Shown in pieces: positions 8,404-32,356 of a stretch of DNA of 36,367 nucleotides (positions within the stretch are counted from its first letter, which is position 1; each line of letters opens with the position of its first letter). Location of the stretch: sequence record DRR723986_9819, one strand, 5' to 3'. Both the position numbers and the translations under genes were made by a program. The notes below the pieces were generated by a model. It ran no database searches and was not told where the DNA came from. It saw only the letters and a program-made list of their open reading frames with translations.

Positions 8404-8637
8404 AATCTGTTAACTCCGCTGGGATGACCGCGAAAGACACGCACGCCCGGCTGATTTGTTGTTTGCATCAATAGCAGCAGCTGCACCTTGGCCTGTATCT
8501 ACATGTGTGATAGTAATGATTAAGGCCGGAACGCAGCTCTGATAGCTGAACGGCCACCAGCCGGGAGACTGTTCCGCAAAGCCAAAGTCTGGCAGTTTAT
8601 CCGCCGCATGTATTGACCTGCAGTACAGCCCGGTGCC

Positions 8638-8673
8638 AAAAAAAATGCCGGCCGGTGTGGTGTACCGGCCGGC
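8638..8673 (-). terminator. Rho-independent terminator (minus strand)
   Basis: Perfect 10-bp stem GCCGGCCGGT/ACCGGCCGGC (8647-8656/8664-8673) with 7-nt loop; A8 at 8638-8645 is the U-tract on the minus strand. Confidence 0.85.
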
Positions 8674-9095
8674 CAGAGGGAAATCGGGTCTATATCCTTA
8701 AAAGCGATTGCGGCATAAACACGGGATCAATTCCGATGTCGATCTGCCTACGGGTTGCGGCGGCGAACCCCGTAGAATCGAAATCGTACAATAACAACCT
8801 CCGTCCGCTGCGATGTCTCCGCGTGAAAGGTACATTCCGGGATCTTACGTAATGAACTTTCTGGTGCGGCCTCTGCTCCTGCGACTTATCATGGTCGTCA
8901 TATGGTTTGCGCGGGAGCTTACAGCGCTATGTAATTGAATTCTGAATCTGAAACCTTTCCGTCCTGTGTATGCTGAGGTCCGTGGTGGACCCTAGTCCGC
9001 AATAAGTGTCTTTTAATGTCATCGTCTCATAATGAGATGCTGACAAAGGCCGATATCCGCCTTTTGTGTTGAGGTAGATGGTTCGTCTCTCACAC
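8638..9095 (-). ncRNA. Candidate ~460-nt structured small RNA, GGA-rich (Csr/Rsm-like hypothesis)
   Basis: Bounded by the promoter at 9102-9130 and the terminator at 8638-8673; no convincing ORF; many hairpins; 12 GGA on the minus strand vs 4 on the plus strand (hand count), several in hairpin loops. Confidence 0.6.
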
Positions 9096-9101
9096 AGATG
9101 C

Positions 9102-9130
9102 AAACTACACATTGCCGCCGCAGCTATCAA
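9102..9130 (-). promoter_or_regulatory. Promoter TTGATA-N17-TAGTTT (minus strand)
   Basis: -35-like TTGATA at 9130-9125 and -10/-7-like TAGTTT at 9107-9102; same geometry as 18443-18471. Confidence 0.7.
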
Positions 9131-9214
9131 TCGGAAAAGGTCTGATTTTTAGCTAGGGTTTTGCCTGATTTGTCACTAAGAGTTTTCCCGATAAACTACT
9201 AGGGGTTTTTCTTA
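9131..9214. promoter_or_regulatory. Array of four 15-bp inverted-repeat operator boxes, 23-bp period
   Basis: TCGGAAAAGGTCTGA (9131), TAGGGTTTTGCCTGA (9154), TAAGAGTTTTCCCGA (9177), TAGGGGTTTTTCTTA (9200); all fit TMRG-N7-CYKA. Confidence 0.8.
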
Positions 9215-9262
9215 GTAAACCGTTCAAACGTGATCAATACTTAAGCCATGCCACAAAACAGA

Positions 9263-9293
9263 CACTGCGCAGTCAAATTCTGGCTGCGCAGTG
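9263..9293 (-). terminator. Probable terminator hairpin of the response regulator gene
   Basis: CACTGCGCAGTCA-N5-TGGCTGCGCAGTG 13-bp near-perfect stem ~50 nt past the stop at 9345, followed by TCTGTTTTG on the minus strand. Confidence 0.6.
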
Positions 9294-9344
9294 GAAATGT
9301 GCCTCTTGGCGTGTATTACGTTTGAGAATGAATCAATGCCAAAA

Positions 9345-9974
9345 TCAATCCACAAGGCGGTGCTTCATCGCATATCGAATCAATTCCGAATTGCTTTTAA
9401 GCTGCATTTTCTCCAGAATGTTACGCCGATGTGTATCCACCGTCTTTGGACTCAAATTCAGGTCATCTGCAATCTTCGTTGGTGTGCGGCCATTAGCCAG
9501 CAATCGGAAAATCTCGTATTCGCGATCCGAAAGCCGCTCATGCGGTGAATTGCCATCCCCAAATACTTCGCCTGCCAATCTCTCTGCCAGCTGTGCCGAA
9601 ACATACTTCCGGCCCGCCGTCACAGTTTGTATGGCAATAATCAATTCCTTGACGTCCAGATCAATGCTCAAACATCCGGCCGCACCGGCTTTGAAGGCGC
9701 GCATCGCATAGTCGTGTTCCGGGGTGACCGACAGCATTAATACTGGTAGTGACGGGAATTTCTGGCGAATTTGTTTCAAAGTTTGTAGGCCGCCACTATT
9801 GGGTAGGGCGACGTCCAGAATAACGACGTGAACTTCATTATTCTCCAGATAACGAAATGTTTCGTCATCGGTCTCTACCGTGCCAACCTGCATATCCTCA
9901 AGACTATAGTTGAGGTATAGTTTCAGGCCAACACGCAGAAAAGAATGTCCATCTGCAACCAAAACATGTGTCAT
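9345..9974 (-). CDS. NarL/FixJ (UvrY/GacA-like) response regulator, REC + LuxR HTH, with atypical receiver
   Basis: REC segment VVILDVALPNSGGLQTLKQIR..PVLMLS; HTH LSDREYEIFRLLANG..IADDLNLSPKTVDTHRRNILEKM; 209 aa; no kinase gene adjacent. Confidence 0.93.
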   Translation of the reverse strand: MTHVLVADGHSFLRVGLKLYLNYSLEDMQVGTVETDDETFRYLENNEVHVVILDVALPNSGGLQTLKQIRQKFPSLPVLMLSVTPEHDYAMRAFKAGAAGCLSIDLDVKELIIAIQTVTAGRKYVSAQLAERLAGEVFGDGNSPHERLSDREYEIFRLLANGRTPTKIADDLNLSPKTVDTHRRNILEKMQLKSNSELIRYAMKHRLVD

Positions 9975-10681
9975 AGTGCTTTTGTCCGAACGGCTCAGGG
10001 AGTCTGAAATCGTGCGGCGGAAAAAAGAGTCGGAGCGGGAATGCAGCGCTCCCTAATGTACAAAAAAATTAAATTACGGGCCGTAAACGTTTCTCGGTAT
10101 GTACCACCTTTTAATTAAGAGATGTTTCCCGATAGTAATCTGTGTGTCATAAGTCCATAAAAAACGGAAAATACGTACGCTAATTCGTGATATATCTAAA
10201 CCCTTAACACACAAAAAGGACTCATCTGCAGCGGTAGAGTCGCTAAATTCCCTGAATCCGTCAATAGAAATGTGATTCGCACTCGTTGCAAACAGGCCCA
10301 CGTTTCTATTGGGTGAATTAGTTGTTGCTAATACCTTTCGATTCATTGACTATTCGATCACTGCTATTGCATGTAACCGGGACGGGCCGACTGGTGAGAA
10401 CAACCTTCCTGCCGCAGGTGAGCACCCCAAAATGTAGCGCTCAGTGGGAAGATACACAAGTGTTGTCTCGGCGAAGCTGCCAAGGCTTTAACTTTGTTTG
10501 CAGCGTCAAATCCATTGGAATGCGCCCTTTTACAGTAGCCTTGTTCAAAAGGTGCTGATATTTTAATGCAATGTGGCAATTCGTTACCGTTCAATCAAAA
10601 AAATTTAATTTTTGGGCCTTCTCATTATGGGCTTTGGCATATCGCTTGCCCAATCTTTTCGGCACCAATCGTTTGATAGAC

Positions 10682-10712
10682 TTTGCAATCAGCACCCGGC
10701 GGGCTAGTTTTG
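10682..10712 (+). promoter_or_regulatory. Bacteroidota-type promoter TTTG-N19-TAGTTTTG upstream of the DUF885 gene
   Basis: Matches the -33 TTTG / -7 TAnnTTTG consensus, 46 bp before ATG 10759. Confidence 0.6.
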
Positions 10713-10758
10713 CAGCAGGAAAATATAAAGATATCAACTGCTACGTAACAGGTGTTGC

Positions 10759-12570
10759 ATGACGTATTCGCGTATGGCATTACTATTAGCTCTCCCGCTG
10801 GCCGTTCTCTGCCTGGCTTGCTCCGCTCCGGAAAACACAGACGCGCCCGAAGATACCACCGTCAACAGCCAGACGGCAGACGCCGCCGCCGCCGAGCTGC
10901 AAACTATTTTTGACGACTATCACGAATACGTCCTGCGAACCAGTCCCGAAACTGCCGACTACGAGGGTGACCATCGTTATTCTGACCGCCTGTCCGACTA
11001 TTCGGCCAGTGCCGCCGCCGCTGCATTTGACTCCCTGCGCATCTACCGCTCGCGGCTCCTGGCGATTGACCGCAGTCTGCTAAGCGACGCTGACCAGATC
11101 AACTACGACATGTTTGAAACCAGCGCTACCGAGCAGCTCTCCTTTGAGGAATTTAATAACCACCTCATGCCGCTCACGCAGCAAAGTGGCCTGCACATCA
11201 GCTTCCCTCAGATAATCGAATATCAACCCTTTGACAGCCTCCCCGACTTTCAGCGCTACTTCATGCGCCTGCGTGCTTTTCCCGGCGCCGTATCCCAGGT
11301 GATTGCCAATATGCGCCAGGGGATCGCAAGTGGCATCGTCCAGCCGCGTTTTGTGGTTGAGCAAATCATCGCCCAAACCGAGAACATCGGCGAAATGGAT
11401 CCCAACGACACTCCTTTTATGGTGCCGCTCCTGCGCGATGACCTAAACCTTAGCGAAGAACAAAAAATCGCTCTCTCCGCCGAATTGATCTCATTCATTG
11501 GTGTGACCGTTCAGCCCGCTTACAAACGCCTCACCGACTTCCTCAAAACCGAATATTTGCCGGCTTCACGCACAGAGCCCGGCGTCTGGTCGTTACCCGA
11601 TGGTGAGAAGCGCTACAATCGCATGATCGCATATCACACAACTACCAAAATGACTGCCGATGAAATTTTTGCCAAGGGCCAGTCCGAAGTTGCTCGCATC
11701 CGTGCCGAAATGGAACGCCTCGTGCGTGAGGAAATCAAATTCGAAGGTGACCTCACCGCATTTATGAAGTACGTGCGCACAGACCCTCAGTTTTACTACA
11801 CGGAAAAAGACTCCCTCATGGCCGGCTACCGTCGCATCCTCAAGGAAATGGATGCCAAACTGCCGCAAATTTTTGGCGTACTGCCCAAAGCCCCGTATGA
11901 GCTCAAGGAAATGGAAGCATTCCGCGCACGTTCGGCACCCCAGGCGTATTACTATTCTGCTCCGGAAGACCGTTCACGACCTGGATACTTTTACGTTAAC
12001 ACCTATGATTTGCCCTCACGTCCATCATACACAATGACGGCTCTGGCGCTGCACGAGGCTGTTCCTGGCCACCACCTGCAAATCGCAATTGCGCAGGAAT
12101 TGGAAGACCTCCCCTGGTTCCGCCGTCAGCTTGGTTTTACCGCCTACGTGGAAGGCTGGGGGCTCTACGCCGAATATCTTGGTTATGAAACGGATATGTA
12201 CACGGACAACTATCAGCATTTTGGTGCATTAACATTTGAAATGTGGCGCGCCTGCCGCCTGGTGGTTGATTGCGGTTTACACTTTAAACAATGGGATCGC
12301 GAGCAGGCCGTGCAATTTATGCTTGACAATACTCCCAACTCCGAACTCGATCTTCGCTCCGAAGTAGACCGTTATATCGTTTGGCCCGGTCAAGCTCTTG
12401 CATACAAAATTGGCGAACTTAAACTCAAGGAACTGCGCGAACGCGCTGAATCCACCCTGGGTGACAAGTTTGATGTGCGTGCCTTCCACGATGCGGTTCT
12501 CGGTGCCGGCGCCCTTCCACTTACGATTCTCGAAAAACGCATCGACGCATGGATTAAAAGCCAGTCTTAA
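10759..12570 (+). CDS. DUF885 family lipoprotein (HExxPGHH, putative metallopeptidase)
   Basis: Signal peptide with lipobox CLAC; HEAVPGHHLQ, AYVEGWGLYAE, WRACRLVVDCGLH, EVDRYIVWPGQALAYKIG, FDVRAFHD. Confidence 0.93.
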   Translation: MTYSRMALLLALPLAVLCLACSAPENTDAPEDTTVNSQTADAAAAELQTIFDDYHEYVLRTSPETADYEGDHRYSDRLSDYSASAAAAAFDSLRIYRSRLLAIDRSLLSDADQINYDMFETSATEQLSFEEFNNHLMPLTQQSGLHISFPQIIEYQPFDSLPDFQRYFMRLRAFPGAVSQVIANMRQGIASGIVQPRFVVEQIIAQTENIGEMDPNDTPFMVPLLRDDLNLSEEQKIALSAELISFIGVTVQPAYKRLTDFLKTEYLPASRTEPGVWSLPDGEKRYNRMIAYHTTTKMTADEIFAKGQSEVARIRAEMERLVREEIKFEGDLTAFMKYVRTDPQFYYTEKDSLMAGYRRILKEMDAKLPQIFGVLPKAPYELKEMEAFRARSAPQAYYYSAPEDRSRPGYFYVNTYDLPSRPSYTMTALALHEAVPGHHLQIAIAQELEDLPWFRRQLGFTAYVEGWGLYAEYLGYETDMYTDNYQHFGALTFEMWRACRLVVDCGLHFKQWDREQAVQFMLDNTPNSELDLRSEVDRYIVWPGQALAYKIGELKLKELRERAESTLGDKFDVRAFHDAVLGAGALPLTILEKRIDAWIKSQS

Positions 12571-12614
12571 AAAAGGTAAGGATTAGTCAAGGTTCCTTGG
12601 TGTTAAATTATTTG

Positions 12615-12658
12615 GCCGCTGTTGAAACAGGTTCTATTCTGTTAACAGCGGCTTTTTT
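12615..12658 (+). terminator. Rho-independent terminator after the DUF885 gene
   Basis: GCCGCTGTT...AACAGCGGC stem followed by T6. Confidence 0.8.
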
Positions 12659-13114
12659 ATGCGCATGGGCCTGTGCCGGATTGATATCATCTTCCATGTT
12701 AACAATGCTCAGGTGCTTCCCTCAGTCGGCATAGGCATTACTCCATATTGACTAATTAGCTCTTGGCATTTATATTCAATTCTTTGCCGTCTTGATCGCC
12801 GTCTTGATCGCTTTGAGGCCTTTCACTTCGTTCGGTCCTCAGGCTTTTTGAGTTTCTTGTTTGGCCCGCTGCGCTTTGATTCTGCATTGAAATCCTCGTC
12901 AAAACAGCGTCAAGTCATGTAGTCGCAAACGCTGTCCGGAAGGTCCGGGTTTGTTGTTGCAACAACGCAAAAATTAATTCGGGAAATGTGGAGGGCTCTG
13001 ATGCTGCTGCGTTCAAATTCATTAACTAACAAAAAGAAAAAGCCAGCCACTGAACTTTGTGAAGGGGGCGCAGCGCTCAAGTCTCTGAAGGCTGTTAAAA
13101 GGAAATCCAGATTG

Positions 13115-13753
13115 TCAATTGGCATTTTTAACGGGTCGTGGCGAAACCTTGCGTGTCCAGTAAATGATGAATGCCGTGCCAATCACCGAAGGTGCCAGCC
13201 AGCCGATAAGTCCGCTATAGAAAAACTGATTAACAACCACAAATGCGGTTGTAGCTGCAATGTAGCCCGCCGTCATTTTTGTTAAATGCATCACCAGCCA
13301 CTTTTTGCGCAATGTTGTTTTGTTGCGAAAGTTGCGAATGTCTGTAATGGCAAACACTAAACCAATTGTGCCAAAAACCGCTAAAACGATGTTAATGCCG
13401 GCCCCGAAAACAACTGGACCAAGTAACATGCCAATGCCGGTCAGGCCCATGGTTACACTAAGTGCGAAGTCGAATGTTAGTCTGACATATTTGGATTTAA
13501 AGCGCAGAGCGCGAAAGCCGGATGCGACCAAATACGCACTGAAAACGCCGATGCTAAACAGAAATGGATTGATGTGGCCGGGTAAACAGGCGACTAAGGC
13601 GCCCAGCAGAGCCGAGCAAAGCATCGACCAGAAAAACACGCGTCCTGCCTGAACATGAACCCTGCCGCCTTTTTTAACAATCAAAGCCAGGAGGCCGGAG
13701 CCGAGTGCCAGGCCGCCGAGACAAGCATGCAAAAGTACTAAGTTGTGTGCCAT
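13115..13753 (-). CDS. DUF2306-like multi-pass membrane protein
   Basis: LH..LGGLALGSG.LAL..KKGGRVHVQAGRVF and WLVMHLTKMTAGYIAATTAFVV motifs; about 6 TM segments; start placed at ATG 13753. Confidence 0.75.
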   Translation of the reverse strand: MAHNLVLLHACLGGLALGSGLLALIVKKGGRVHVQAGRVFFWSMLCSALLGALVACLPGHINPFLFSIGVFSAYLVASGFRALRFKSKYVRLTFDFALSVTMGLTGIGMLLGPVVFGAGINIVLAVFGTIGLVFAITDIRNFRNKTTLRKKWLVMHLTKMTAGYIAATTAFVVVNQFFYSGLIGWLAPSVIGTAFIIYWTRKVSPRPVKNAN

Positions 13754-13912
13754 GTTCTGTGCCGGTGATTGTGCGTTTGATTTAACAAGCAGAGTGCCAA
13801 AGTGTAGGCCACATTGCGGATCAACAGTCACAAACCTTAATGTGTGACTGATAACAATCAGGCAAGCCACGGATTAAACAAATGTGAAGTCTGCACCGCC
13901 GAAACTTAACAT

Positions 13913-15391
13913 TTATGGAGCTGCAACCAATGGCCGCTGCTCGATAAAGTCGTACATCGTAATCCACCGCAGCCGATAGAAAGCCGTCCAGTACGCGCCC
14001 AGTGCCTGAATGAATCCCTGCGTTGCGCCGTCGCGTTCGGCTTGTGCCTGAAACAAATCCGTGATTGCAATTTTGCCGATAAGGTAACGATTTTTAGCAA
14101 CTTCGAAGCGTTTACGTGCAATTGTGTCCGACTTGGCGGCGATGGTGATTTGGCGTTGCGCGTTAGAAAACTGCATTGCCGCCATGAAGACACGCTGTTC
14201 AAATTCGATACGTTCTTCTGTGATATTTTCGAGCGCCTGTTCACGTTGTGCCAGGGCAATTTGCTGTTGCGCTGAATTACCGCCCCAGTCCAGCAAAGGC
14301 ATGCTAAAAGAGACGCTGAAGCGCTGGGCGTCAAGCAGGTCCTGATAGGCTGTTTCAAAGTCCGAACTGGTTTGGTTAAAACCGAGCGATGCTGAAATTG
14401 TCGCATTAAATCCGGCATCGGCTTCACTGCGCTCAACGTCGCGCTGTGTTTCTACATCCTGCAGTTCAAATCCAAGGATTTCACTGCGATGTTTAAGTGC
14501 CATTTTAACGGCTTCATCTGGTGCCAGAGTAATTGTACGTGCCAGTGGTGGAGGGCTTACGTCAAGTCTCATGTCAGGTGCAAAACCAAGTGCGCGCGCA
14601 AAACCACGTTGTGCAATCTGATGGTTTAACTCGGCGTCACTAAGGCGAATTTCGGCATTCATGTATGCCAGCTCACTCTGCAGCAGGTCGTTCTCAGCAA
14701 TTGAGCCAACGCGGAAGCGACCTTGTGACAGCCTGAAGATAGTGTCATTAATCGACATGTTAAACTGCGCACTTTCCAGGTTCATGCGCGAAATATAGAG
14801 CGAGAAGAATTGTTCGCTGATATCGACGGCAATTCGTTCCATTTCTTCAACATAATTGCGTTCGGCCAGATTGCGGCGCATAGGTTGAATTTTGCGGTCC
14901 CAGCTCATATCATTGAAGCTGAAGAGCGGTTGTGTTAAGCTGATACTAAATGGGTTTGTGCGCCATTGTGTGTTGTCATCAGTTAAGCTGGACGTATTGC
15001 TGAGGCCGGAACTGATGCGCAGGTCAGCGCCTGTGAGCGGAATGCGCTGTGTGATTCCAATGTCAGCTGAGGAAAAGGCCTGACTGACCTCTGAAAACTG
15101 TTCGCCTTCGGCATTGCGGAACGCTGTGATAGATCGTGTTAAGCCGGGGATGTCGCCATTTAAACTAAGCTGCGGTAGATAGGATGCATTAAAGCTTTGA
15201 TTCTGCCACAGGGCAATATCATAGGTTCGCCGCAGTGCACGCGCGCGCGGACTGTTTTTCTGCGCCAGTTCGATGCTTTCGTTTAAACTGTAGGCGCGCT
15301 GATCGCCCGTTTGTGCATTGCCTGCCTGGCTGACCAGTAGCAGGCCCGCCAGGCTCAGGGTAAATGCGAGGATGTTAAAGATGTATCTCAT
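13913..15391 (-). CDS. TolC family outer-membrane efflux protein
   Basis: Signal peptide; SLNESIELAQKNSP, YLPQLSLNG, LTQPLF, RFRVGSIAENDLLQSEL, RYLIGKIAITDLFQAQ repeats. Confidence 0.92.
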   Translation of the reverse strand: MRYIFNILAFTLSLAGLLLVSQAGNAQTGDQRAYSLNESIELAQKNSPRARALRRTYDIALWQNQSFNASYLPQLSLNGDIPGLTRSITAFRNAEGEQFSEVSQAFSSADIGITQRIPLTGADLRISSGLSNTSSLTDDNTQWRTNPFSISLTQPLFSFNDMSWDRKIQPMRRNLAERNYVEEMERIAVDISEQFFSLYISRMNLESAQFNMSINDTIFRLSQGRFRVGSIAENDLLQSELAYMNAEIRLSDAELNHQIAQRGFARALGFAPDMRLDVSPPPLARTITLAPDEAVKMALKHRSEILGFELQDVETQRDVERSEADAGFNATISASLGFNQTSSDFETAYQDLLDAQRFSVSFSMPLLDWGGNSAQQQIALAQREQALENITEERIEFEQRVFMAAMQFSNAQRQITIAAKSDTIARKRFEVAKNRYLIGKIAITDLFQAQAERDGATQGFIQALGAYWTAFYRLRWITMYDFIEQRPLVAAP

Positions 15392-15444
15392 TCTATGGCT
15401 TGTTGACTATTGGTCACTGTAAAGATGCCGGCGGCCAAATGTTG

Positions 15445-16791
15445 TTAATCATGTCGTAGCGATTCGACCGGGTTTTGTGATGCTGCGCGGCGCGCGGGCA
15501 CGATACCAAAAATCAGTCCGATTGACATCGCAACGCCAAAGGACAGGAGTACTGACGAAGCCGTCACGATTGTATCGATTTCAGCCGCCTTGGCAATTAT
15601 GAGGCTGAGGCCAATGCCGAGCATCACACCGACGACACCTCCTGCCACACTAATGGCCGTTGCTTCGCTCAGAAATTGCAGATTGATGTCAGTCGGCGTG
15701 GCTCCCAGAGAGAGCCGAATGCCAATTTCTTTAATGCGTTCCATCACGTTGGCAAGCATGATATTCATGATGCCAATTCCACCCACGATGAGTGAGATAG
15801 AAGCGATTGCTCCCAGGACGTAGTTAAACAGGCGTGTTGTTTCACGCTGCTGTTCCAGTACAACTTCCGGGATTGTAATTTCAAAATCGACGACTTCATT
15901 GTGTCGGCGTGTTAACATTCGGCTGATTACCTCGGCGGCACTGCGACTGTACGCGTTGTCGCTTAAGCGTATCACAACCCGATCGAGCTGATGATAGTCA
16001 CTGTTAACACCAAATGAAGCTCCACCACTTTCACGGCCACGGCCGCCGGGTGCCAGATCATCTGAACTAACCGTGGAGCGATCGCGATAGCGCAGCAGCA
16101 TGGTTGGCAGCGGTGTGTAAACATCCAGGTTGGGATTGCGCAGGCCAAGTTGTTCCAGTTGTTCCTTGGCAACACTTTGATCTTGCAGTACGCCGACGAC
16201 GCGCAGCCAGATGGGGCCGGCTTTGATGCTTTTGCCGATAGGATCAACACCGGCAAAGAAGCGTGTGCGAATTTCATGGCCAATGACGCAGACTGGGGCG
16301 TGAGTCTCAAAATGCAGCGTTGAGAATGACGTGCCGAGGACAAATTTGGCGTCATTGCTCTTAAAATGTTGCTGTGAGACTCCAACTATAACAGTGTTAC
16401 GCACAACACCTTCGCGCGCCAATTCTACCGGCAGGACCATTTCGGGGTAGACAGCTTCTACCTGGGGCAATGTAGACTTAATACTTTCTGCGTCGGCTAG
16501 CGTGAGTCCCGGAGAGTAGCGCCGAATTTGCATTTCGCTGCTTTGATCTTCATCCTCCTCTTCACCTTCATCGTCGCCCTCCTGAATTCGCGGCGTAACA
16601 ATCAAGTTGTCGGCACCGAGCAGGTCCAATTGTTGCAAGATTTTCTCTTGGGCGCCACGCCCGATTGCCAACATTGCAATGACGCTGGCAACGCCAAACA
16701 CGATTCCGAGCGAGGTGAGCAGGGCTCGCAGCTTATTCTGCGCCATGGATTCAGCGGCGATTAAAACGTTGTGCAGAATGCGTCGGATCAT
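15445..16791 (-). CDS. MacB/FtsX-type ABC transporter permease (no ATPase domain)
   Basis: NKLRALLTSLGIVFGVASVIAMLAIG, ISLIVGGIGIMNIMLANVMERIKEIGIRLSLGA, PARRAASQNPVESLRHD. Confidence 0.93.
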   Translation of the reverse strand: MIRRILHNVLIAAESMAQNKLRALLTSLGIVFGVASVIAMLAIGRGAQEKILQQLDLLGADNLIVTPRIQEGDDEGEEEDEDQSSEMQIRRYSPGLTLADAESIKSTLPQVEAVYPEMVLPVELAREGVVRNTVIVGVSQQHFKSNDAKFVLGTSFSTLHFETHAPVCVIGHEIRTRFFAGVDPIGKSIKAGPIWLRVVGVLQDQSVAKEQLEQLGLRNPNLDVYTPLPTMLLRYRDRSTVSSDDLAPGGRGRESGGASFGVNSDYHQLDRVVIRLSDNAYSRSAAEVISRMLTRRHNEVVDFEITIPEVVLEQQRETTRLFNYVLGAIASISLIVGGIGIMNIMLANVMERIKEIGIRLSLGATPTDINLQFLSEATAISVAGGVVGVMLGIGLSLIIAKAAEIDTIVTASSVLLSFGVAMSIGLIFGIVPARRAASQNPVESLRHD

Positions 16792-16881
16792 TGTATGGGT
16801 ACCTTAGTCGCAGCGATGTTTCGTAAAGAAACGTGGTTTATGGTCGGAAACAAGCATTGTCATTTTTTGATACGCTGCAAG

Positions 16882-18138
16882 CTATTCGTTAGAGGCTGTG
16901 GGTTCGGATGCTGGGGTTTCGACGTCTTCCGGCTGGCTCAAATATATCTCATCATCGAGCGACAGACCACTTTCAATCACCACGTGTGTGCCATTCATCA
17001 GCCCGAGGGTGACGGCTTGTCGTTTTGGGCCGTCAGCGGTCTCCTTATACACAAAGACCAGTGAGTCCTGGGCGTGAATGGTCTCAAGCGGTACAAACAA
17101 GGCCTCATCCAGGCGCGATACCAGAATTTCGTTGCTGGTAGTCATAGAAGGGCGCAGGGTTGTATCCACGTCTTCGACTTCGATAAGGACTTCGAAGACT
17201 TTGGAGTCGGAGTTGCGTTGTTTCTCACCGACGTTGGCGACTTCGCGCACGGTGCCTTTCAGGACTTTTTCGGGGAGGGCGTAGAGTTTGATGGTGACGT
17301 CCTGGCCCTGCTGGACGTTGCGGATGTCGATTTCGTTAACAAAAGTTAGGGACTCCATATTACTCAGGTCGGGCAGCTCGGCGACGACGGGGTTCCATGC
17401 GGAGACGACGGAGCCAACGGCTTTTTTGCCGCCGCGACTTTCACGCGAGTAGATGACCATGCCATCTGAAGGTGCCAGAACGGTGAATTCCTGCAGCGTT
17501 TCTACGTAGCTATCGTGTGTGCGTTGATGTGAGCGCAGTTCAGCGCCGACTTCGCGCATTTTAGCGACGGCCTGCTGGACTTGGACTTCGTAGTTGTTTT
17601 CGGCCTGCTTGAGTGCGCGTTCGGAGCGTTCATAGTCGATCTGCGCCTGGCGAACGACGGACGGTGCCTCGTAGACTGACTGCTCATTTCGGATATTCGC
17701 TTCTTCGAGTGCAAAGCGTAAATTCACGAGATTATCGCGTGCTTGTGACAAGCTAAGAGCCGTATCGAGGCGTGCCTGTTCGTATTGAGACTCGGCTTTT
17801 TGAATGTTGATCAAAAGGTCTTTGATTTTACCTGACAAATCCGATTTATCCAGCTGCGCCACAAAATCGCCCTTTTTAACAAGCGTTCCTTCGGGCACCA
17901 TATCAGAGATATTTATCTGATAGATGCCGGTGGACTGGACGTTGCGCGGTCCGCGGATTTTGATGGAGTTTTTGGCGCGGAGCTCACCGGTGGTAGTAAC
18001 GGCGACTTCAAACGGACCTGACTCAGGCTTAACCAGAATTTGGGTCTGATTTTGGGCGGGCTCTGCAAGCGCCAGCCAGGCTGCCGCGACGAGTCCGATT
18101 CCGATTAGGGAATATATGATGTTGCGAAGAATCTTCAT
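16882..18138 (-). CDS. Efflux periplasmic adaptor (HlyD/MacA family membrane fusion protein)
   Basis: N-terminal TM; VPEGTLVKKGDFVAQLD, coiled coil, APSDGMVIY, VNEIDI..VQQGQ.V.I, LRPSMT. Confidence 0.92.
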   Translation of the reverse strand: MKILRNIIYSLIGIGLVAAAWLALAEPAQNQTQILVKPESGPFEVAVTTTGELRAKNSIKIRGPRNVQSTGIYQINISDMVPEGTLVKKGDFVAQLDKSDLSGKIKDLLINIQKAESQYEQARLDTALSLSQARDNLVNLRFALEEANIRNEQSVYEAPSVVRQAQIDYERSERALKQAENNYEVQVQQAVAKMREVGAELRSHQRTHDSYVETLQEFTVLAPSDGMVIYSRESRGGKKAVGSVVSAWNPVVAELPDLSNMESLTFVNEIDIRNVQQGQDVTIKLYALPEKVLKGTVREVANVGEKQRNSDSKVFEVLIEVEDVDTTLRPSMTTSNEILVSRLDEALFVPLETIHAQDSLVFVYKETADGPKRQAVTLGLMNGTHVVIESGLSLDDEIYLSQPEDVETPASEPTASNE

Positions 18139-18358
18139 GATCGCTTATATCGTTTGCTGTAATGAAAGTTTCGGCAAATTATACCATTATCTCAAGTGGA
18201 AAACTACTGGCATAAGTGTTATGTTCAGCTCAAATATAGTCGCTACAGACAAATGAGGCTATTTGAATGAGCTAAGCGAGCAAAAAATCTCCGTAAAATT
18301 TTTTAGAATCGGCGGAGAAATATGACTTATGTTTTTGAGCACGCATGGGCGCTGATTT

Positions 18359-18442
18359 TAAGGGTTTTTCTTATGCTAATCTCAGAAAAACCCTTAGAAC
18401 AAATTAGGGCAAACACTTAGGGTAAAATAAGGGTTATGCTTA
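18359..18442. promoter_or_regulatory. Second array of four 15-bp operator boxes, 23-bp period
   Basis: TAAGGGTTTTTCTTA (18359), TCAGAAAAACCCTTA (18382), TAGGGCAAACACTTA (18405), TAAGGGTTATGCTTA (18428); all fit TMRG-N7-CYKA. Confidence 0.82.
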
Positions 18443-18473
18443 TTGCTTCACGCGCTGTAAAGAACTAGTTTTG
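18443..18473 (+). promoter_or_regulatory. Promoter TTGCTT-N17-TAGTTT(TG) facing the PKS cassette
   Basis: TTG starts immediately after the last box; TAGTTTTG (TAnnTTTG) at 18466-18473. Confidence 0.72.
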
Positions 18474-19276
18474 CATGCGACTTACGGAACGGTTTAAGAA
18501 CGCGATAGTGGAAGTCATTATCGACGGGAAAGAAACCAACAACTAAAGCAAGATCGTTCCACATAACTTTTGACATTTAGAGAAAGTTTGCTTGTTTTCC
18601 TCGTTGAGACATCACTGCCGATCAAAACGAGAAAAACGCTCTGGGGAGAGTTGCCACTGCCAATGCGCTACCTCTCCAGTTCGAACACCAGCCCTTCGTT
18701 CACATACTTTCTTGAATTTGATTTTTTGCGTACACTGAAGAGAGCCGGAAATAAATCGGAATCCACCAGGTGGGGAAGTTGCACTCCAGCAGTGACTTTA
18801 CCACGGACCGAACAAAGCAGCACACTCATGTAAGTTTACCTTGATGTGAATTTGCGACTGCTATTTCTTCTGGTTAATTCTCGTGTTATACCCTGGTTGA
18901 TCATTATCATGTGCCATTGTGTTTAATTAAACACAATAGCCATACACACGATCCCGGATTACTTGCCTGCGCACTTCGACGGAAGCAGCGTGCGGAGGCA
19001 GGGTGGAAGGGGTGCGTGCCGAACTAAGGCGGAAAGGGCTGCGTCACAAAGCCAAGGAACTACTGTTCCTGGCCGACGATCACACTATATATTACTGTTT
19101 AACTTTTGGTGAGATTACAGTGATCACGTTAGAGTGTGAGCCGCATTAAGTCGTTGTAATGCGCTAGACATTGACGATAGACTGTAACAGATATATCTCT
19201 AAACCCATGCGTATACAAGGCATACGGGCCATTGCCGCGTGCGCTCACTTTTGACCCCGTATCGACAAAGGGAGTT

Positions 19277-21151
19277 ATGAAACAAGCTAAATCTTCTGTA
19301 CCAATAGTGGCGATGATCGTCCTTCTGCTGACGGGATCCTGGATTCTGCGTCCCGTTGAAGCAGAGCTACCTGACCTTGGGATTACATTTACGGAAGTTG
19401 CTGAAGAGGCTAACTGTTTAAATCAACATACTAAAGTTGAGTTGGCTTCGCGCTTTGAAAACATTATGCCCTGGCTCTCCTCAGTTGGAGCAGCCGTGGC
19501 AACTGGAGATTTTGACGGCGATGGATTTGTGGATTACTACGCCACAAACTGCGGCCGTGACTCACATAACCGTTTATACCGCAACCGTGGCAATGGAACG
19601 TTTGAAGATGTTGCAACTGCCTGGGGCGTAGCCGACTACAATGGCGTCGGCGCTTCTATGGATGCCGTTTTTCTGGATTTTGACAATGACGGTGACGAGG
19701 ACTTGTATCTGGTCAAATGGGCCGCCACAAATGTTCTGTTTGAGAATGTTGGCGATCGCTTTGTTGACCGTACAACCTCCGCCGGCGTTGGATTCTGGGG
19801 CTACGCTAATTCCGTGGTAACACTGGATTACGACCGTGACGGCCTGCTGGACATTCTGGTTGGAAATTATTTTGCTGAAGAAGTTCAGGATGAAAATACC
19901 GGACAGCTTGTCCGCAGTGATCTTTGGGATCCCGTATCGTCAAAAGTCATGCACGCCACATTTACGCACGCCACGAATGGTGGCCGCAATGTACTCTACA
20001 AAAACAACGGCAACGGAACCTTCCGTGACGTGACGATGGAGACGGGCATTGGGCACACCGGCTGGACGCTGGATATCGGCGTTGGCGATCTTAACAACGA
20101 TGGCTGGACGGATTTGTACGTATCGAATGACTTTGGTGCTGACGAAATCTACTTTAACACCGGTGCTACATCCGAGACGACAACATTCACGATTCATATC
20201 GATCCGGACGGACATCCGGGTGCCGGTAATGACTGGTGGAAAGGCATGAACTGTGATATCGGCGATGTTAACAATGATGGCCGTCAAGACGTGTACGTCA
20301 CAAACATCCTGGCACATCGCTATAAAACCGATGAGGGTAACATGCTGTGGTTAAACACAGCACAGGATGATATGGAAGGCGGAGTTAAATTCAGCAATAT
20401 TGGCAAAGAAGTAGATGTACACGATGGTGGCTGGGGTTGGGGCGGTCGCTTCTGCGATATGAACAACGACGGCCTGATGGACATCTTTGCACTTAACGGT
20501 TTCGCCACTGGTAAAGACCGTGACAACACTTATTGGTTTGCGTTGCAGGAAATGGTAACACAAACCAAAAACAACGCTTCTGATACAGAAGTATGGCCCG
20601 ATATGGGTGATCGTGATTTGTCTGGACATGAACCAAGTCGCTTGTTCATTCAACGTCCTACCAGCGAAAGCCAACCCGAGTTTATTGAGTATGCAGAGCT
20701 GGCGGGAATTACCGACCTGTACAACGGTCGTGGAATCGGTCTTGCAGACTATGACAATGATGGAGACCTGGACATGTATATCGCCAACCAGGGTGCGCCA
20801 AGTTGTTTGTACCGCAATGAAACCGGCAACACATCCGGCTCCTGGCTGGGACTCAAGCTGGTCGGACGTCCTGACGCACCAAAGCAGATTGATGGTCGCA
20901 TGTACGCTACCACCATGAATGCTGCAGGCGCACGCGTAGAGGTTTGGGCCGGTGGTCAGTACCATGTTAACGAACAGAACGAAGTCAATGGTTTTGCCGG
21001 TCAGGGAGACCGCCGCCTGCACTTTGGTCTGGGACAGGTTAACGAAATCGAACGGATCGTAATCTCGTGGCCAAGTGGGCGCACTACCACGATGGAAGGT
21101 GGCGATGTATTAGCCATTAATTCCTACCACGAGATTGTAGAGACGATCTGA
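19277..21151 (+). CDS. unbV: Enediyne cassette protein E4/UnbV (CRTAC1 family: FG-GAP/VCBS repeats + ASPIC/UnbV domain)
   Basis: Repeated DFDGDG/DFDNDGD/DYDRDG/DLNNDG/DVNNDG motifs; GWGWGGRFCDMNNDG; DLSGHE; C-terminal GFAGQGDRRLHFGLG..ISWPSG; N-terminal signal/anchor; SD GGGAG before ATG 19277. Confidence 0.88.
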   Translation: MKQAKSSVPIVAMIVLLLTGSWILRPVEAELPDLGITFTEVAEEANCLNQHTKVELASRFENIMPWLSSVGAAVATGDFDGDGFVDYYATNCGRDSHNRLYRNRGNGTFEDVATAWGVADYNGVGASMDAVFLDFDNDGDEDLYLVKWAATNVLFENVGDRFVDRTTSAGVGFWGYANSVVTLDYDRDGLLDILVGNYFAEEVQDENTGQLVRSDLWDPVSSKVMHATFTHATNGGRNVLYKNNGNGTFRDVTMETGIGHTGWTLDIGVGDLNNDGWTDLYVSNDFGADEIYFNTGATSETTTFTIHIDPDGHPGAGNDWWKGMNCDIGDVNNDGRQDVYVTNILAHRYKTDEGNMLWLNTAQDDMEGGVKFSNIGKEVDVHDGGWGWGGRFCDMNNDGLMDIFALNGFATGKDRDNTYWFALQEMVTQTKNNASDTEVWPDMGDRDLSGHEPSRLFIQRPTSESQPEFIEYAELAGITDLYNGRGIGLADYDNDGDLDMYIANQGAPSCLYRNETGNTSGSWLGLKLVGRPDAPKQIDGRMYATTMNAAGARVEVWAGGQYHVNEQNEVNGFAGQGDRRLHFGLGQVNEIERIVISWPSGRTTTMEGGDVLAINSYHEIVETI

Positions 21152-21281
21152 CAACCACACTATGACATATAGATGCCTGCCGTGCAGTGTGTTGCGCGAA
21201 AAAGAAACAAGCACACGGCGGCAGGCGATTTTATCTCACAAGCTTCGCATTTCAACAACGCTATTGAACGGAGATACTACC

Positions 21282-22295
21282 GTGAAATTCAAAATTATCG
21301 GCGTCGTCGCAACTATCGTCGTAGTTGTCCTTGCCATCTTTGCCTACCAACGTGCCGGCATTCTGGACCTTCCCGAAGTACCACAGGACTTAACAGCCGA
21401 CATGGTTGGTCTTGGAGGAATTGATACGCTGCGTTTTTCGCAGAACAAACTTGATTCTGGATCTTACTTCGGCGGTGTCAATGATAAAGGCACGGCAGTT
21501 ATGGCTATGGGCGCAGAACAGTTCCGCAAGGGAACATATGAGCGCGGACTGGAAGTGATGCGCATGGGCTTTAACTTTGACCCGAATAACCTGGCCCTGG
21601 GTAATGCCTTCCGTCTGTGTGTACTGGAAGCTCAGCGTGACTATTTGCGCAAGGCGGCCAAGGCGCGTCAACAGAAAGTGCGTCTGCCAATTTGGTTAAA
21701 CAATGAACCACGCCGGACCTTTGACAGCCGCTATAGAATTTACCGCTCGCGTGAGCTGAAATTCCAAAACGCGATGGCACTTGTAGACAAGATGCTTTTA
21801 TATCCCGCGCTAGAAATCAAGGCGCCTGCCAGCGTTGAAGCCGTAGAGTTATTGACGGAGATACTCGAAGAAAATAATGGAGAGAACAAATACTACGTTC
21901 CGGCGCTGTTTGCCCGTGGGCTGAACTATTTGTACCGGCCGGCAAATCTGGAATGGCCGGAAACGATTAAATCCTCCCCTACAGCTGCCAGTGATGATTT
22001 GGCGATGTGTGTGGCAATTGGTCAGGTCGTAGGTGTGGGTTCTGATGAACTTAAAGCACGCCTCTCGATGACGCTGGGTGACGCACATGTTAAGGAAGGT
22101 AACATCTCAAAAGGACGCTCATGGTGGCAAATCGCATACAACCTTAACAAAAGTGATAAGGCGTTTGCAGCTGAGATTAACGAGCGTACATCCTGGAAAG
22201 ATGATGAAGCAGGTGACAAGCTTGAGCGCCTGCTCGAACAACAAATGAATAATATTGCAAAACCGCTTACCGATATGAGGTTCATGTGGAAATGA
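21282..22295 (+). CDS. Membrane-anchored helical/TPR-like hypothetical protein inside the cassette
   Basis: GTG start after GGAGA; N-terminal TM; TPR-like segments (..GLEVMRMGFNFDPNN.., LGDAHVKEGNISKGRSWWQIA); ATGA overlap with the next gene. Confidence 0.7.
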   Translation: MKFKIIGVVATIVVVVLAIFAYQRAGILDLPEVPQDLTADMVGLGGIDTLRFSQNKLDSGSYFGGVNDKGTAVMAMGAEQFRKGTYERGLEVMRMGFNFDPNNLALGNAFRLCVLEAQRDYLRKAAKARQQKVRLPIWLNNEPRRTFDSRYRIYRSRELKFQNAMALVDKMLLYPALEIKAPASVEAVELLTEILEENNGENKYYVPALFARGLNYLYRPANLEWPETIKSSPTAASDDLAMCVAIGQVVGVGSDELKARLSMTLGDAHVKEGNISKGRSWWQIAYNLNKSDKAFAAEINERTSWKDDEAGDKLERLLEQQMNNIAKPLTDMRFMWK

Positions 22296-23203
22296 ACGCC
22301 ACAGCCCCAGCGGCTCAAAAAACATCACCGGCGCCAATGAAATTTGTGTTGCCAAAATTGCGAGACCCACGCGTGACGCTGCTGTGTATCCTTGGAACAT
22401 ACACGGCACTGGGGCAGTTCGTCTTCTACTTCAACGTAAGTATGGAGCAGCTGCTGTTGACAATTGGTGTGACAGGAGGTTTGGACTTCCTGATTACCCT
22501 GTTTAAGCGTCGCCGCATAGAAATACCACTCAGCGGAATCATTACAGGCCTTAGCCTGGGCCTGCTGCTTGAGTCATACAGCAGCGTCATCTTTGTTGTT
22601 GCTGCCGTATGGTCAATTGCTTCAAAGTACTTGATCAAGTACAAAGGCGTGCAGGTGTTTAACCCGTCAAACTTCGGTATCGTAGCAGCGTTGTTGCTGA
22701 TGCATGGAACTGTAACGGTCGCTCCCGGCTCACAATGGGGTAGTGAAATTTTATACTCCGTCATCGTGCTTTCTTTTGGCCTGATGATGAGCTGGCGTGT
22801 TAACAGGCTGCCGCTTGTATTGGGTTGGGCAGGTGGATTTGTATTGATGGGACTGGTGCGCATGTCGCTCGGGCAAGGTGGATTAATATTCGTGCTTGGG
22901 CCAATGACGGGCGCTGAGTTTATGCTCTTTACGATTTCGATGGTACCTGATCCCAAGGCTTCACCTAAACACGTTGTGACGCAGGTAGTTTGGGGACTTT
23001 CGATTGCGCTGATTGATGGAGTGATGCGCTTCAGTGAGATGCGTTTCTCAATGTTCTACGCTCTGTTTATCCTTTGTGCAATTCGCCCATGGTTTGAAAG
23101 TGCCGTTGAACGGATATTTAACCTGGCCGAAGACCAGCGTGCTTGGACAGGTGGTAACGCCCGCCAGCCTGCCGCAGTTTTGAAGGATAAGGCCGCCGCC
23201 TGA
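22292..23203 (+). CDS. unbU: Enediyne cassette protein E5/UnbU-like membrane protein (RnfD/NqrB-like)
   Basis: Multi-TM; ITGLSLGLLL, SIASKYLIK...QVFNPSNFGI, FTISMVPDPKASP; located in the PKSE cassette. Confidence 0.8.
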   Translation: MNATAPAAQKTSPAPMKFVLPKLRDPRVTLLCILGTYTALGQFVFYFNVSMEQLLLTIGVTGGLDFLITLFKRRRIEIPLSGIITGLSLGLLLESYSSVIFVVAAVWSIASKYLIKYKGVQVFNPSNFGIVAALLLMHGTVTVAPGSQWGSEILYSVIVLSFGLMMSWRVNRLPLVLGWAGGFVLMGLVRMSLGQGGLIFVLGPMTGAEFMLFTISMVPDPKASPKHVVTQVVWGLSIALIDGVMRFSEMRFSMFYALFILCAIRPWFESAVERIFNLAEDQRAWTGGNARQPAAVLKDKAAA

Positions 23204-23289
23204 TTTCCACCTGAAATCATGCAGACAAAAATGTACACCAAGAATGTGCGGCAGCTCAGCAACGGCTGCCGCCGAAAGGAAACACTACT

Positions 23290-24252
23290 ATGATCGGTTC
23301 AGTGATGGCCTGGTGGATCGGACGCCTGATAGATAATATGCGTTTTCCCAACCAGGGTCCGGGAGGAGAAGAAACAACACGGCAGGTAATGCAGTCCTTC
23401 GGTGCTGGTGCTAAACTGGGACTGCGCAACAAGTCTTTGGAACAAGTGCGTGCCTATTCAGATAACCTGCCGTGGAGCCACCGTGCGTTTTACCACGAAG
23501 GTCATGCAATGGGTGTTGCTGCGCGATGTGCTATGCGTCTTAAGTCCGGCACTCCGGAAGCAATGTTTGACTATGAAGAATACCGCCTGATGCGCTATGT
23601 CGGTTACGGTTTTTGGAACGGAGCAACCACAAAGTATCCCGCGCCAAAAATGGATGAGACAAGTGCACTCTGGGGCGATGAGGAGACCTGGCAGAAGTAC
23701 CGTCTGCTGATGCCCAACGGCTTTGGTTTCTCTACAGTGATGTTTCGCGGTGTTTTTGATGACTCTGCAATTGCAAGCATCGAACAACTCGGTGACGAGG
23801 AATCGCGCGAAGCAGCATACCATGGCGTCGGTCGTGTTTTGTGGTTTCTCTACATGCACAACTATGATGAGTTAAACAGGATTCTGAATCAACAAGTCTG
23901 GCGCAGTGAGCCGCTTGCAATCGGTTTGGGTTTGGCAATGGGGTTTACCCAGGTCGCTATGCCGGATGCCGTTATGCGCGCCGTTGACCAGATTGACGAA
24001 CGCCACCGTGAAAACGTTCTGCGCGGAGTTGGAATCGCCCTGGAAACACATGCCAGCAATAGCCCGGAGGGGCGCATTCAGGTTGAGCGATCAGTATACG
24101 GTGAGTTGCGTCTCCGTTATGACATCGCCCTGGAAGCGACTGCTTCAGGAACGGGAGAAAACTGGTACCGCCTCTATCACGAAAACACGCGCCGGAAATC
24201 TCGCGCGGAATTTGCGCAGGCCATGTCAAATGGCGCGGCCGTACGACGTTAA
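23290..24252 (+). CDS. unbL: Enediyne cassette protein E3/UnbL (DUF1702 family)
   Basis: AFYHEGHAMG, YVGYGF, NGFGF, GVGRVLWF, GLGLAMGF, GVGIA motifs; 320 aa; directly upstream of pksE. Confidence 0.8.
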   Translation: MIGSVMAWWIGRLIDNMRFPNQGPGGEETTRQVMQSFGAGAKLGLRNKSLEQVRAYSDNLPWSHRAFYHEGHAMGVAARCAMRLKSGTPEAMFDYEEYRLMRYVGYGFWNGATTKYPAPKMDETSALWGDEETWQKYRLLMPNGFGFSTVMFRGVFDDSAIASIEQLGDEESREAAYHGVGRVLWFLYMHNYDELNRILNQQVWRSEPLAIGLGLAMGFTQVAMPDAVMRAVDQIDERHRENVLRGVGIALETHASNSPEGRIQVERSVYGELRLRYDIALEATASGTGENWYRLYHENTRRKSRAEFAQAMSNGAAVRR

Positions 24253-24294
24253 ACATCAAACCTCACTCGGTCGGATCTCTCAAGGAACACAGAA

Positions 24295-30126: not shown

Positions 30127-30553
30127 ACATAAACATGTAGTTGGTTTTGAAGAAACCAACGTAGTCGGCAATGTATACTTTGCCAACTATCTGGTCTGGC
30201 AGGGCAAAGCCCGCGAAATGTTTTTACGTGCCCATTGTCCTTCGGTGCTGGCATTAATTGCTGACGGCTTGTCACTTGTGACGCTGCGCACCAATTGTGA
30301 GTACTTCGCTGAGCTGGAAGCTTTTGATGAAGTGCTGATCCGAATGACACTTGAAGATATTCGCCAGAACCGAGTGACCATGAAGTTCGATTATTTCAAA
30401 GTTACACCGCGCGGCAACGAACTTGCTGCCAGCGGTGAGCAATCCATCGCCTGCATGCAGCGTGACGGCACGGAAATGGTTCCGACACCGGTACCAACCG
30501 AAATGCGTGACGCTCTGCGGACCTATCAAAACTCAGCCCTGGGTGTAGTTTGA
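30113..30553 (+). CDS. Enediyne core thioesterase E10/TEBC (hotdog fold; SgcE10/CalE7/DynE7 family)
   Basis: VGFEETNVVGNVYFANYLVWQGKAREMFL, CEYFAEL, GEQSIACM; overlaps the pksE stop by 14 bp. Confidence 0.93.
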   Translation: MKAFEHKHVVGFEETNVVGNVYFANYLVWQGKAREMFLRAHCPSVLALIADGLSLVTLRTNCEYFAELEAFDEVLIRMTLEDIRQNRVTMKFDYFKVTPRGNELAASGEQSIACMQRDGTEMVPTPVPTEMRDALRTYQNSALGVV

Positions 30554-30618
30554 TGTATTGTTTTTGCAATCTCAGAAATCAAGAAGTTAACACAAGCCGC
30601 AAATGCACTTTTGCACTG

Positions 30619-32286: not shown

Positions 32287-32356
32287 ACAAATTTCATAAT
32301 TGCGTGGCATGCCACAACAGCCTAATAACTCGTGGCATGTTTCTGAATGGGTTAAC

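Follow-up and report, generated by a model that had tools for sequence, protein, structure and literature searches.

The 36,367-nucleotide stretch DRR723986_9819, referred to here as the window, carries two predicted promoters, each preceded by four copies of a 15-bp dyad. They raise the question of whether the two arrays of boxes are operators of a single regulator, which protein binds them, and what is controlled from them. A preliminary description of the window had reported that all eight boxes fit TMRG-N7-CYKA and follow one another in steps of 23 bp, that the last box of each array touches the TTG of the −35 element, and that TAGTTT lies 17 nt past that hexamer. Direct reading of the sequence confirmed these observations for both arrays, with box starts exactly as reported (Table 1). 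TAGTTT is found at 9107..9102 (−) in promoter A and at 18466-18471 (+) in promoter B, and in both it runs on as TAGTTT(T)GCA. The interpretation that accompanied these observations is partly supported by the present analysis. We hold it moderately probable that the arrays are operators of one NarL/LuxR-type activator, whose likeliest candidate is the response regulator encoded beside array A, and that they drive a non-coding RNA (promoter A) and a polyketide synthase (PKS) operon (promoter B).

The arrays are real and not a product of chance. The degenerate pattern TMRG-N7-CYKA is common by itself: it matched the window 11 times versus 5.12 ± 2.48 expected, a count reached by 3 of 100 shuffles. 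Eight of the 11 matches fall in the two arrays, and the remaining three (14037, 17033 and 26355) are intragenic. A stricter consensus with one mismatch allowed showed no overall enrichment in the window (16 matches versus 13 expected). The spacings between boxes up to 100 bp apart were only 23 bp (6 pairs), 46 bp (4 pairs) and 69 bp (2 pairs), and box pairs at 23 bp occurred in none of 1,000 dinucleotide-preserving shuffles of the window.

Conservation of the arrays was assessed in relatives. A search with the regulator protein returned one close relative, L001, which is 92% identical and belongs to an unclassified metagenome-assembled bacterium (genome G001); the other matches were at most 46% identical. 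Further relatives were reached via this locus, among them G002, which is near-identical to G001. Both arrays are present in G001 at corresponding relative places. The identity between the window and G001 is 62/64 at outer box positions, 49/56 at inner box positions, 32/48 in the spacers and 47/62 in the core promoters; since the box positions are better kept than the spacers, the boxes are the constrained part. A scan of the relatives for arrays phased at 23 bp found them in four genomes. The pattern of two boxes 23 bp apart gave 18 forward matches at 8 loci in G001 (reversed pattern, 0), 13 in G002, 37 in G004 and 17 in G014, with reversed-pattern controls of 0 or 1, and had no match in the other 27 of the 31 relatives. 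Of 151 genomes sampled from the order, 4 contained a three-box pattern (reversed controls, 0); in the phylum sample it was seen in one of 301 genomes, namely, G001. Both sets are samples, and failure to find arrays in the remaining genomes searched does not demonstrate their absence.

Arrays are kept at orthologous loci between G001 and G002, and the number of boxes per array varies from 2 to 6. The two window promoters belong to a regulon that is confined to a small clade, an uncultured lineage within the Bacteroidota group. What had been presented as a pair of promoters sharing an architecture is therefore real in its two arrays but is not a two-promoter device, since the relatives carry at least ~6 to 19 array promoters per genome.

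Because the TMRG-N7-CYKA pattern had been drawn after the fact from the same eight boxes, an independent matrix was trained on relatives (19 positions; 76 units from G001 and G004, with the window and G014 excluded) and applied to both strands with a cut of at least 9 bits. This matrix recovered all eight window boxes, at 15.5 to 23.0 bits in promoter orientation. Beyond these, it reached the cut at only two places in the window: 6224-6238 (11.2 bits), within a CNNM gene, and 9504-9518. The latter is a single box-like site of 13.6 bits within the coding sequence of the regulator itself and may be due to chance.

Read in promoter orientation, the 84 units of the window, G001 and G004 have the consensus gnnnAAAA-TcAGaaAatcnCTTA. 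Each half of the box has the form T-(A/C)-(A/G)-G-(A/G)-(A/G)-(A/T), which makes the box an imperfect inverted heptad with one central base. An A-tract lies in the spacer immediately ahead of the next box, and the units are directional relative to the promoter. The proximal boxes have a separate consensus, TCAGAnTTTTTCCGA, which ends in CCGA and is followed by TTG. Given the inverted heptad, the central base and the 23-bp unit, half-sites alternate at 11 and 12 bp along the array.

The arrays stand at a fixed distance from promoters. In a collection of 42 arrays (window, 2; G001, 8; G004, 19; G014, 13), with offsets counted from the outermost box end on both flanks, TAnnTT starts at 23 bp in 32 arrays and at 24 bp in 5 (37/42). 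It is always on exactly one flank, and every other offset was seen at most 3 times. TTG immediately follows the box on 24 of the 84 flanks, both elements are present together in 20 of the 42 arrays, and on 29 flanks a TTG at offsets 27-28 completes TAnnTT(T)G. Five arrays have no −10-like element at the expected place (G001 C63b, the third array of G004 C108, G004 C119a, G004 C155 and G014 C40). In G014, TAKC is found instead of TTG, with the box-to-TAnnTT distance retained. The boxes never overlap the −10/−7 element or the predicted start and always end exactly at the −33/−35 position, which argues for activation rather than repression. These relationships support the view that the arrays are operator-like elements tied to promoters. 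The core promoters have the Bacteroidota-type form TTG, 17-23 nt, TAnnTTTG: TTG-N20-TAGTTTGC in promoter A and TTG-N20-TAGTTTTG in promoter B. In the accessible parts of the published accounts, the layout TTG-N20-TAnnTTTG is that of the housekeeping promoters of Bacteroides and Flavobacterium (PMC2483708; bioRxiv 10.1101/172254).

The regulator encoded beside array A has the domain order of the NarL/FixJ family, with PF00072 (4.8e-21) followed by PF00196 (4.8e-19). Its nearest solved relatives are VraR and NarL, and RcsB is also among the solved relatives (E = 2.9e-15). Its best NCBIfam match is UvrY/SirA/GacA (NF007018), at 136.1 bits, which is under the cut-off of 280. In alignments with VraR and NarL, the receiver does not show the full active-site set: DD is replaced by DG and the conserved Lys by Ile, while the phospho-acceptor Asp53 and the Ser are kept. 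The DG and Ile changes are common to the window, G001 and G004 orthologues; most aligned NarL-type paralogues retain both residues, and G001 C31 and G004 C130 also deviate. No kinase gene was found in the window by the Pfam scan of its proteins. Since the receiver lacks two conserved active-site residues, this regulator may work independently of classical phosphorylation.

The order regulator, ~130 to 170 bp, four-box array and RNA is kept in the window, in G001 and in G004, where the regulator is 80% identical; the G002 copy of the regulator is interrupted by a contig end. The distance from the regulator and RNA to the PKS-operon array is 8 to 9.5 kb in the window, G001 and G004. Complete orthologues of the regulator at E ≤ 1e-60 were found in 2 of the 151 genomes of the order, both of them array-bearing. 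Judged from gene order and distribution, the neighbouring NarL-type regulator is likely to be the binder of the boxes. The proposal of the preliminary description that the local regulator is the activator thus keeps its best candidate, and what speaks against it is G014, which bears arrays without a close orthologue. Immediately upstream of the regulator gene, an ORF (open reading frame) of 90 aa without any family is found at 10074-10346 on that same strand (−).

Promoter A is predicted to produce an RNA of ~456 nt that ends at a strong terminator. The small RNA candidate of the preliminary description is therefore retained as a predicted non-coding RNA, but it is longer than a classical small RNA. 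Its counterparts in G001 and G004 are 412 and 378 nt long, respectively. The 5′ half is variable, and the 3′ part (~8640-8870) is highly conserved: identity over the last ~220 nt is 85 to 86% with G001 and G002, and G004 reaches 89% over the final 88 nt. Comparison of the window, G001 and G004 revealed no conserved reading frame behind promoter A (minus strand); a small protein was rejected, as a 2-nt indel disrupts the window's 45-aa frame in G001, and the ATG of that frame is lacking in G004. Rfam gave no match to the RNA at gathering scores, and a scan of 8380-9130 by E value gave only a terminator-like match to PtaRNA1 (18.1 bits versus 47) and one to ftsZ-DE (13.9 versus 72.2). A metagenome scan with a conserved 19-mer returned 14 loci, all unrelated outside the 19-mer. 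The structure obtained with RNAalifold is a consensus fold only, from three independent sequences (the window, G001 with the near-identical G002, and G004). Whole-length duplexfold of the conserved domain against the regulon leaders, a crude test that carries little weight, gave the same energies as shuffled leaders. We take the predicted RNA to be a regulatory RNA.

A second candidate non-coding RNA of ~430 nt was observed downstream of four-box arrays at L055 (G001 C21) and L087 (G004 C39). It contains only small non-conserved ORFs and a conserved stretch of 46 nt, and its terminator hairpin, GGAGGAATC ... GATTCCTCC followed by a T-run, lies ~380 to 430 nt past the −10 element.

Promoter B heads a set of genes whose tight packing on one strand points to a single operon. 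The gene order is UnbV/ASPIC FG-GAP protein, two unknown ORFs, DUF1702, iterative PKS, thioesterase, an unknown 578-aa ORF and a TauE-like membrane protein. By its predicted gene content, this operon is an enediyne/polyene-type cassette. It contains the PKSE core, in which an iterative KS-AT-KR-DH PKS precedes a DynE7/CalE7-type hot-dog thioesterase. The matches of this thioesterase include 4i4j, an ACP-polyene thioesterase (2.8e-43), DynE7 (2.5e-42) and CalE7 (6.5e-36), and the AT region of the PKS matches DynE8 (1.5e-61). Candidates for the accessory genes UnbL, UnbV and UnbU are UnbV_ASPIC (2.7e-15) and DUF1702 (4.3e-16), both detected by Pfam, of which DUF1702 may correspond to UnbL, and a membrane protein as a possible UnbU; a C-terminal phosphopantetheinyl transferase domain was not among the Pfam matches of the cassette. 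The UnbV/ASPIC gene most likely starts at a conserved ATG at 19277, which places a leader of ~800 nt ahead of it, and no terminator-like site was found in this leader. In G004, the orthologous UnbV gene is preceded by six boxes. The divergent efflux operon may be part of the same gene cluster and serve polyketide export or self-protection.

Among the first ORFs of at least 100 aa behind arrays in G001, G004 and G014 (n = 30), 11 have Pfam families and 19 have none. A type IX secretion sorting domain was detected in 5 of the 30 target proteins and, below threshold, in three more. To our knowledge, type IX secretion is confined to the Bacteroidota group, and the sorting domains therefore fit the same lineage as the promoter type. 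The other target families are TonB-dependent receptor, subtilase, SdrD-like repeats, endosialidase-chaperone, YadA-like, tetratricopeptide repeat (TPR) plus GerE regulator, and SpvB/TcdB. The last of these was seen in L111 (G014 C78), an ORF of more than 1,000 aa with SpvB and TcdB mid-region domains (toxin-complex B-like) that lies behind a two-box array. At L091 (G004 C108), at least two adjacent genes encoding proteins of ~375 to 382 aa without a Pfam family have a four-box array each, and a third array lies ~1.7 kb further on.

Long 5′ leaders seem to be a trait of the regulon. In the window, G001, G004 and G014, the first ORF of at least 100 aa begins 6 to 877 nt past the −10 element, with a median of 434 nt; the distance exceeds 100 nt in 33 of 35 promoters. 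These ORFs were called mechanically, and the leaders may contain small genes. An all-against-all BLAST of the leaders revealed no shared leader element, only orthologues and paralogues being matched.

Table 1. Positions of the boxes, promoters, transcripts and genes in the window; bits are those of the relatives-trained matrix
Feature	Position	Strand	Sequence (promoter orientation)	Remarks
Predicted non-coding RNA, ~456 nt	8638..9095	−		Alignment with G001; BLAST matches in G001, G002 and G004
Intrinsic terminator	8638..8673	−		10-bp stem (9 G-C pairs), 8673..8647, then A and eight U (8645..8638); kept in G001, G002 and G004
Core promoter A	9100..9130	−	TTGATA (9130..9125), 17 nt, TAGTTTGC (9107..9100)	Predicted start ~9095
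Array A box 1 (proximal)	9131..9145	−	TCAGACCTTTTCCGA	15.5 bits; abuts TTG element; fits proximal-box consensus
Array A box 2	9154..9168	−	TCAGGCAAAACCCTA	16.2 bits
Array A box 3	9177..9191	−	TCGGGAAAACTCTTA	18.5 bits
Array A box 4 (distal)	9200..9214	−	TAAGAAAAACCCCTA	20.0 bits; kept in G001
Inverted repeat, 13-nt arms	9263..9293	−		Between regulator stop codon and array A; probably terminator of the regulator gene
Response regulator, 209 aa	9345..9974	−		Receiver and GerE/LuxR helix-turn-helix (Pfam); candidate binder of the boxes
Divergent efflux operon	13913..18138	−		Outer-membrane factor, MacB-like permease, HlyD-like adaptor; starts ~220 bp from distal box of array B
Array B box 4 (distal)	18359..18373	+	TAAGGGTTTTTCTTA	18.5 bits
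Array B box 3	18382..18396	+	TCAGAAAAACCCTTA	23.0 bits
Array B box 2	18405..18419	+	TAGGGCAAACACTTA	16.6 bits
Array B box 1 (proximal)	18428..18442	+	TAAGGGTTATGCTTA	17.9 bits; abuts TTG element
Core promoter B	18443..18473	+	TTGCTT (18443-18448), 17 nt, TAGTTTTG	Kept in G001; predicted start ~18478
Leader, ~800 nt	18478..19276	+		Ahead of first PKS-operon gene; patchily conserved with G001, not with G004
Enediyne/polyene-type PKS operon (putative)	19277..33412	+		ORFs, Pfam
Iterative PKS KS-AT-KR-DH, 1943 aa	24295-30126	+		Pfam
Hot-dog thioesterase	30113-30553	+		Pfam

The mechanism that we favor is the following. Each 15-bp box would hold one head-to-head dimer on the inverted heptad T(A/C)(A/G)G(A/G)(A/G)A, and two to six dimers would sit side by side in a fixed 23-bp register. 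The proximal dimer would touch the TTG at −33/−35 and so be able to contact RNA polymerase at a Bacteroidota-type promoter. The likeliest binder would be the orphan response regulator whose gene immediately precedes array A. The activator would turn on the ~456-nt RNA (from ~9095 to 8640, −) and the enediyne-type PKS operon (from ~18478, +) and, in relatives, ~6 to 19 promoters per genome whose genes encode cargo of type IX secretion, a toxin-complex-like protein and further proteins that are secreted or exposed at the surface. We infer cooperative binding, as we do activation itself.

Several observations weigh against this proposal. A generic sigma-70 scan called neither window promoter, which is explained by the agreement of TAGTTT with TATAAT at only 3 of 6 positions. 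The 23-bp step, which holds throughout the 42 arrays save one step of 22 bp, is uniform partly by construction, because the arrays were seeded on exact 23-bp pairs (extension permitted 21 to 24 bp and used 22 bp once). With 10.5 bp to the helical turn, a step of 23 bp would rotate each dimer by ~69 degrees, and face sharing would be poorer than in the 22-bp register of BvgA from Bordetella. The symmetry of a DNA site names no protein family, and many helix-turn-helix dimers use half-sites 11 bp apart. A receiver without the conserved Lys and one Asp leaves the mechanism by which the regulator is switched on in doubt. Array-free genomes match the regulator as well as G014 does (43% in G017 and 42% in G026), and G014 bears arrays of the same geometry with a best regulator match of 40% identity. 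Either a diverged relative is the binder in G014, or the gene is missing from the assembly, or another protein occupies the boxes.

The last of these possibilities can be generalized: the arrays would be activator sites bound by a protein encoded elsewhere, for example, a different LuxR/GerE-type regulator, with the neighbouring regulator a bystander or a member of the regulon. We regard this as unlikely, if worth serious attention. It would account for the 13 arrays of G014 and for the degenerate look of the window regulator's receiver, and other candidates exist, as NarL-type paralogues give 3 to 4 matches per genome at E ≤ 1e-20 and one array in G004 heads a TPR plus GerE regulator gene. 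However, the order regulator-array-RNA is kept in three genomes, and the close orthologues, in 2 of the 151 genomes of the order, occur only where there are arrays. The paralogue group that is 44% identical has equally close relatives (39 to 43% identical to the window regulator) in array-free genomes. The TPR-GerE target of G004 was rejected as a second LuxR-type candidate inside the regulon, as it has no similarity to G001 C30, the sole target compared. It is much less probable that a repressor or silencer occupies the arrays and coats the DNA upstream of otherwise constitutive promoters, which would be relieved upon its departure. Tandem arrays of sites can indeed serve repression by oligomerisation, but the boxes end at −33/−35, never over the −10/−7 element or the predicted start, and the replacement of TTG by TAKC at an unchanged distance in G014 is typical of activator-dependent promoters. 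Moreover, the BvgA layout, which has the same geometry, activates in the accessible part of its description (PMC7250471).

The regulator and the RNA could also form a cascade like GacA/UvrY-RsmZ/CsrB, in which the RNA sponges CsrA, and control of the PKS and secreted-protein genes is chiefly post-transcriptional, through their long leaders. An RNA gene adjoining a regulator whose best NCBIfam match is UvrY/SirA/GacA, several GGA motifs kept in the conserved 3′ domain of the RNA, CsrA in 4 of the 4 array-bearing genomes and the long leaders of regulon genes would all fit such a cascade, which we nevertheless consider improbable. The family score is far under the cut-off, and GGA is at best weakly enriched in the RNA (12 observed versus 7.3 expected in the window, P ~0.04; 7 versus 5.8 in G001; 7 versus 6.9 in G004). 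In G001, the only genome checked, csrA (L065, contig C71) lies beside fliW and a motB-like gene, by which the lineage appears flagellated, with a partner switch of the FliW-CsrA type. With the weak GGA enrichment, the lack of an Rfam match and the link of csrA to fliW, a role of the RNA as a CsrA sponge is unsupported, and the position of arrays directly ahead of protein-coding targets argues for transcriptional control of those targets. Least probable by far is that each array with its promoter is one copy of a cassette, mobile or repeated, that needs no dedicated regulator. The same layout does recur at many genomic places, and in G004 three tandem paralogous genes each bear an array, but box spacers, 17-nt promoter spacers and leaders are unrelated between loci, with only orthologues and recent paralogues matching. 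In addition, arrays stay at orthologous loci in G001 and G002, both window arrays have G001 counterparts, and box number varies.

An operator array read by one NarL/LuxR-type activator would have wider implications. Since the boxes are so regular, sequence alone suffices to delineate the whole regulon in bacteria that have yet to be cultured, which is rare: in the BvgA model, most sites are too weak for prediction. One regulator gene, expressed in a Bacteroidota host, could switch on the enediyne-type cluster and the set of secreted proteins. The arrays also form a natural series of promoters with 2, 3, 4 or 6 sites, in which site number and phasing could be related to promoter strength with a Bacteroidota-type sigma factor, and the two ~400-nt RNAs together with the regulon-wide long leaders may provide a second layer of control. 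Speculatively, a kinase-free regulator with a degenerate receiver would form a rigid filament of dimers on 23-bp operators and recruit the Bacteroidota RNA polymerase, with box number (2 to 6) setting the threshold. It would act as one switch over a lineage-specific program of attack and secretion, comprising the enediyne-type polyketide, type IX cargo, a toxin-complex-like protein and the two RNAs, perhaps acting on the long leaders. This full scheme is doubtful; if true, Proteobacteria would no longer be the only group with a described BvgA-like master switch, and the scheme would offer a handle for turning on a silent enediyne cluster of an uncultured bacterium.

The system shares features with several known regulatory systems. 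GacA/UvrY, a NarL-type regulator, governs secondary metabolism and activates genes of non-coding RNAs from a palindrome located upstream of them, whose arms read TAAG...CTTA. The likeness lies in the best NCBIfam match of the regulator, the presence of a non-coding RNA gene and the link to secondary metabolism. In contrast with the single 18-bp box of GacA located further upstream, four 15-bp boxes abut the promoter here; the family score is below cut-off, the RNA is not clearly rich in GGA, CsrA is linked to FliW, and boxes stand directly on protein-coding targets. The preliminary description had read the boxes as dyads of a LuxR-type helix-turn-helix protein and had pointed to the RcsAB box. 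A LuxR/NarL activator binding as tandem dimers is indeed the best reading, and RcsB/RcsAB resembles it in that a GerE-type dimer binds a palindrome of the form TAAGnnn...nnnCTTA. The RcsAB box is, however, a single 14-bp site, and we know of no phased arrays of it that abut a promoter, so that BvgA is the closer precedent. Pho boxes (PhoB/PhoP) are tandem 22-bp units, several per promoter, that replace or abut the −35 element; these are direct repeats for winged-helix proteins of the OmpR family, whereas the boxes described here are inverted repeats. The adjacency of regulator and RNA recalls Vibrio, where the luxO gene adjoins qrr1, a regulatory RNA gene activated by LuxO, but LuxO is a sigma-54 enhancer-binding protein, and Qrr RNAs are ~100 nt long and Hfq-dependent. 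A literature search found no such arrays in Bacteroidetes or with NarL-family regulators, which is no proof of their absence in print.

The closest likeness is to BvgA of Bordetella. In the accessible part of the published account, BvgA binds as head-to-head dimers whose centres are 22 bp apart, three at Pfha and six at Pptx, with the most downstream site abutting the −35 element and the strong primary site of Pfha reading TAAGAAATTTCCTA (PMC7250471). The same part of the account relates the promoter response to the number and quality of the sites, places many secreted-protein and toxin genes under the one regulator, and describes most sites as weak and hard to see in sequence (PMC7250471). 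As far as that account goes, the arrays resemble this system in the NarL/FixJ family of the candidate regulator, in inverted heptad sites that fit a head-to-head dimer, in adjoining dimer sites at a fixed step of about two helical turns and in a proximal site abutting −35. They differ in the step (23 versus 22 bp), in the box (15 versus 14 bp, with one extra central base) and in that nearly all boxes are near consensus, whereas BvgA sites are mostly weak. They differ further in the Bacteroidota −33/−7 core promoter, in the atypical receiver and the lack of a kinase gene in the window, and in that the sites are known from sequence alone. By analogy, the arrays are best described as an unusually regular instance of the BvgA kind of promoter architecture.

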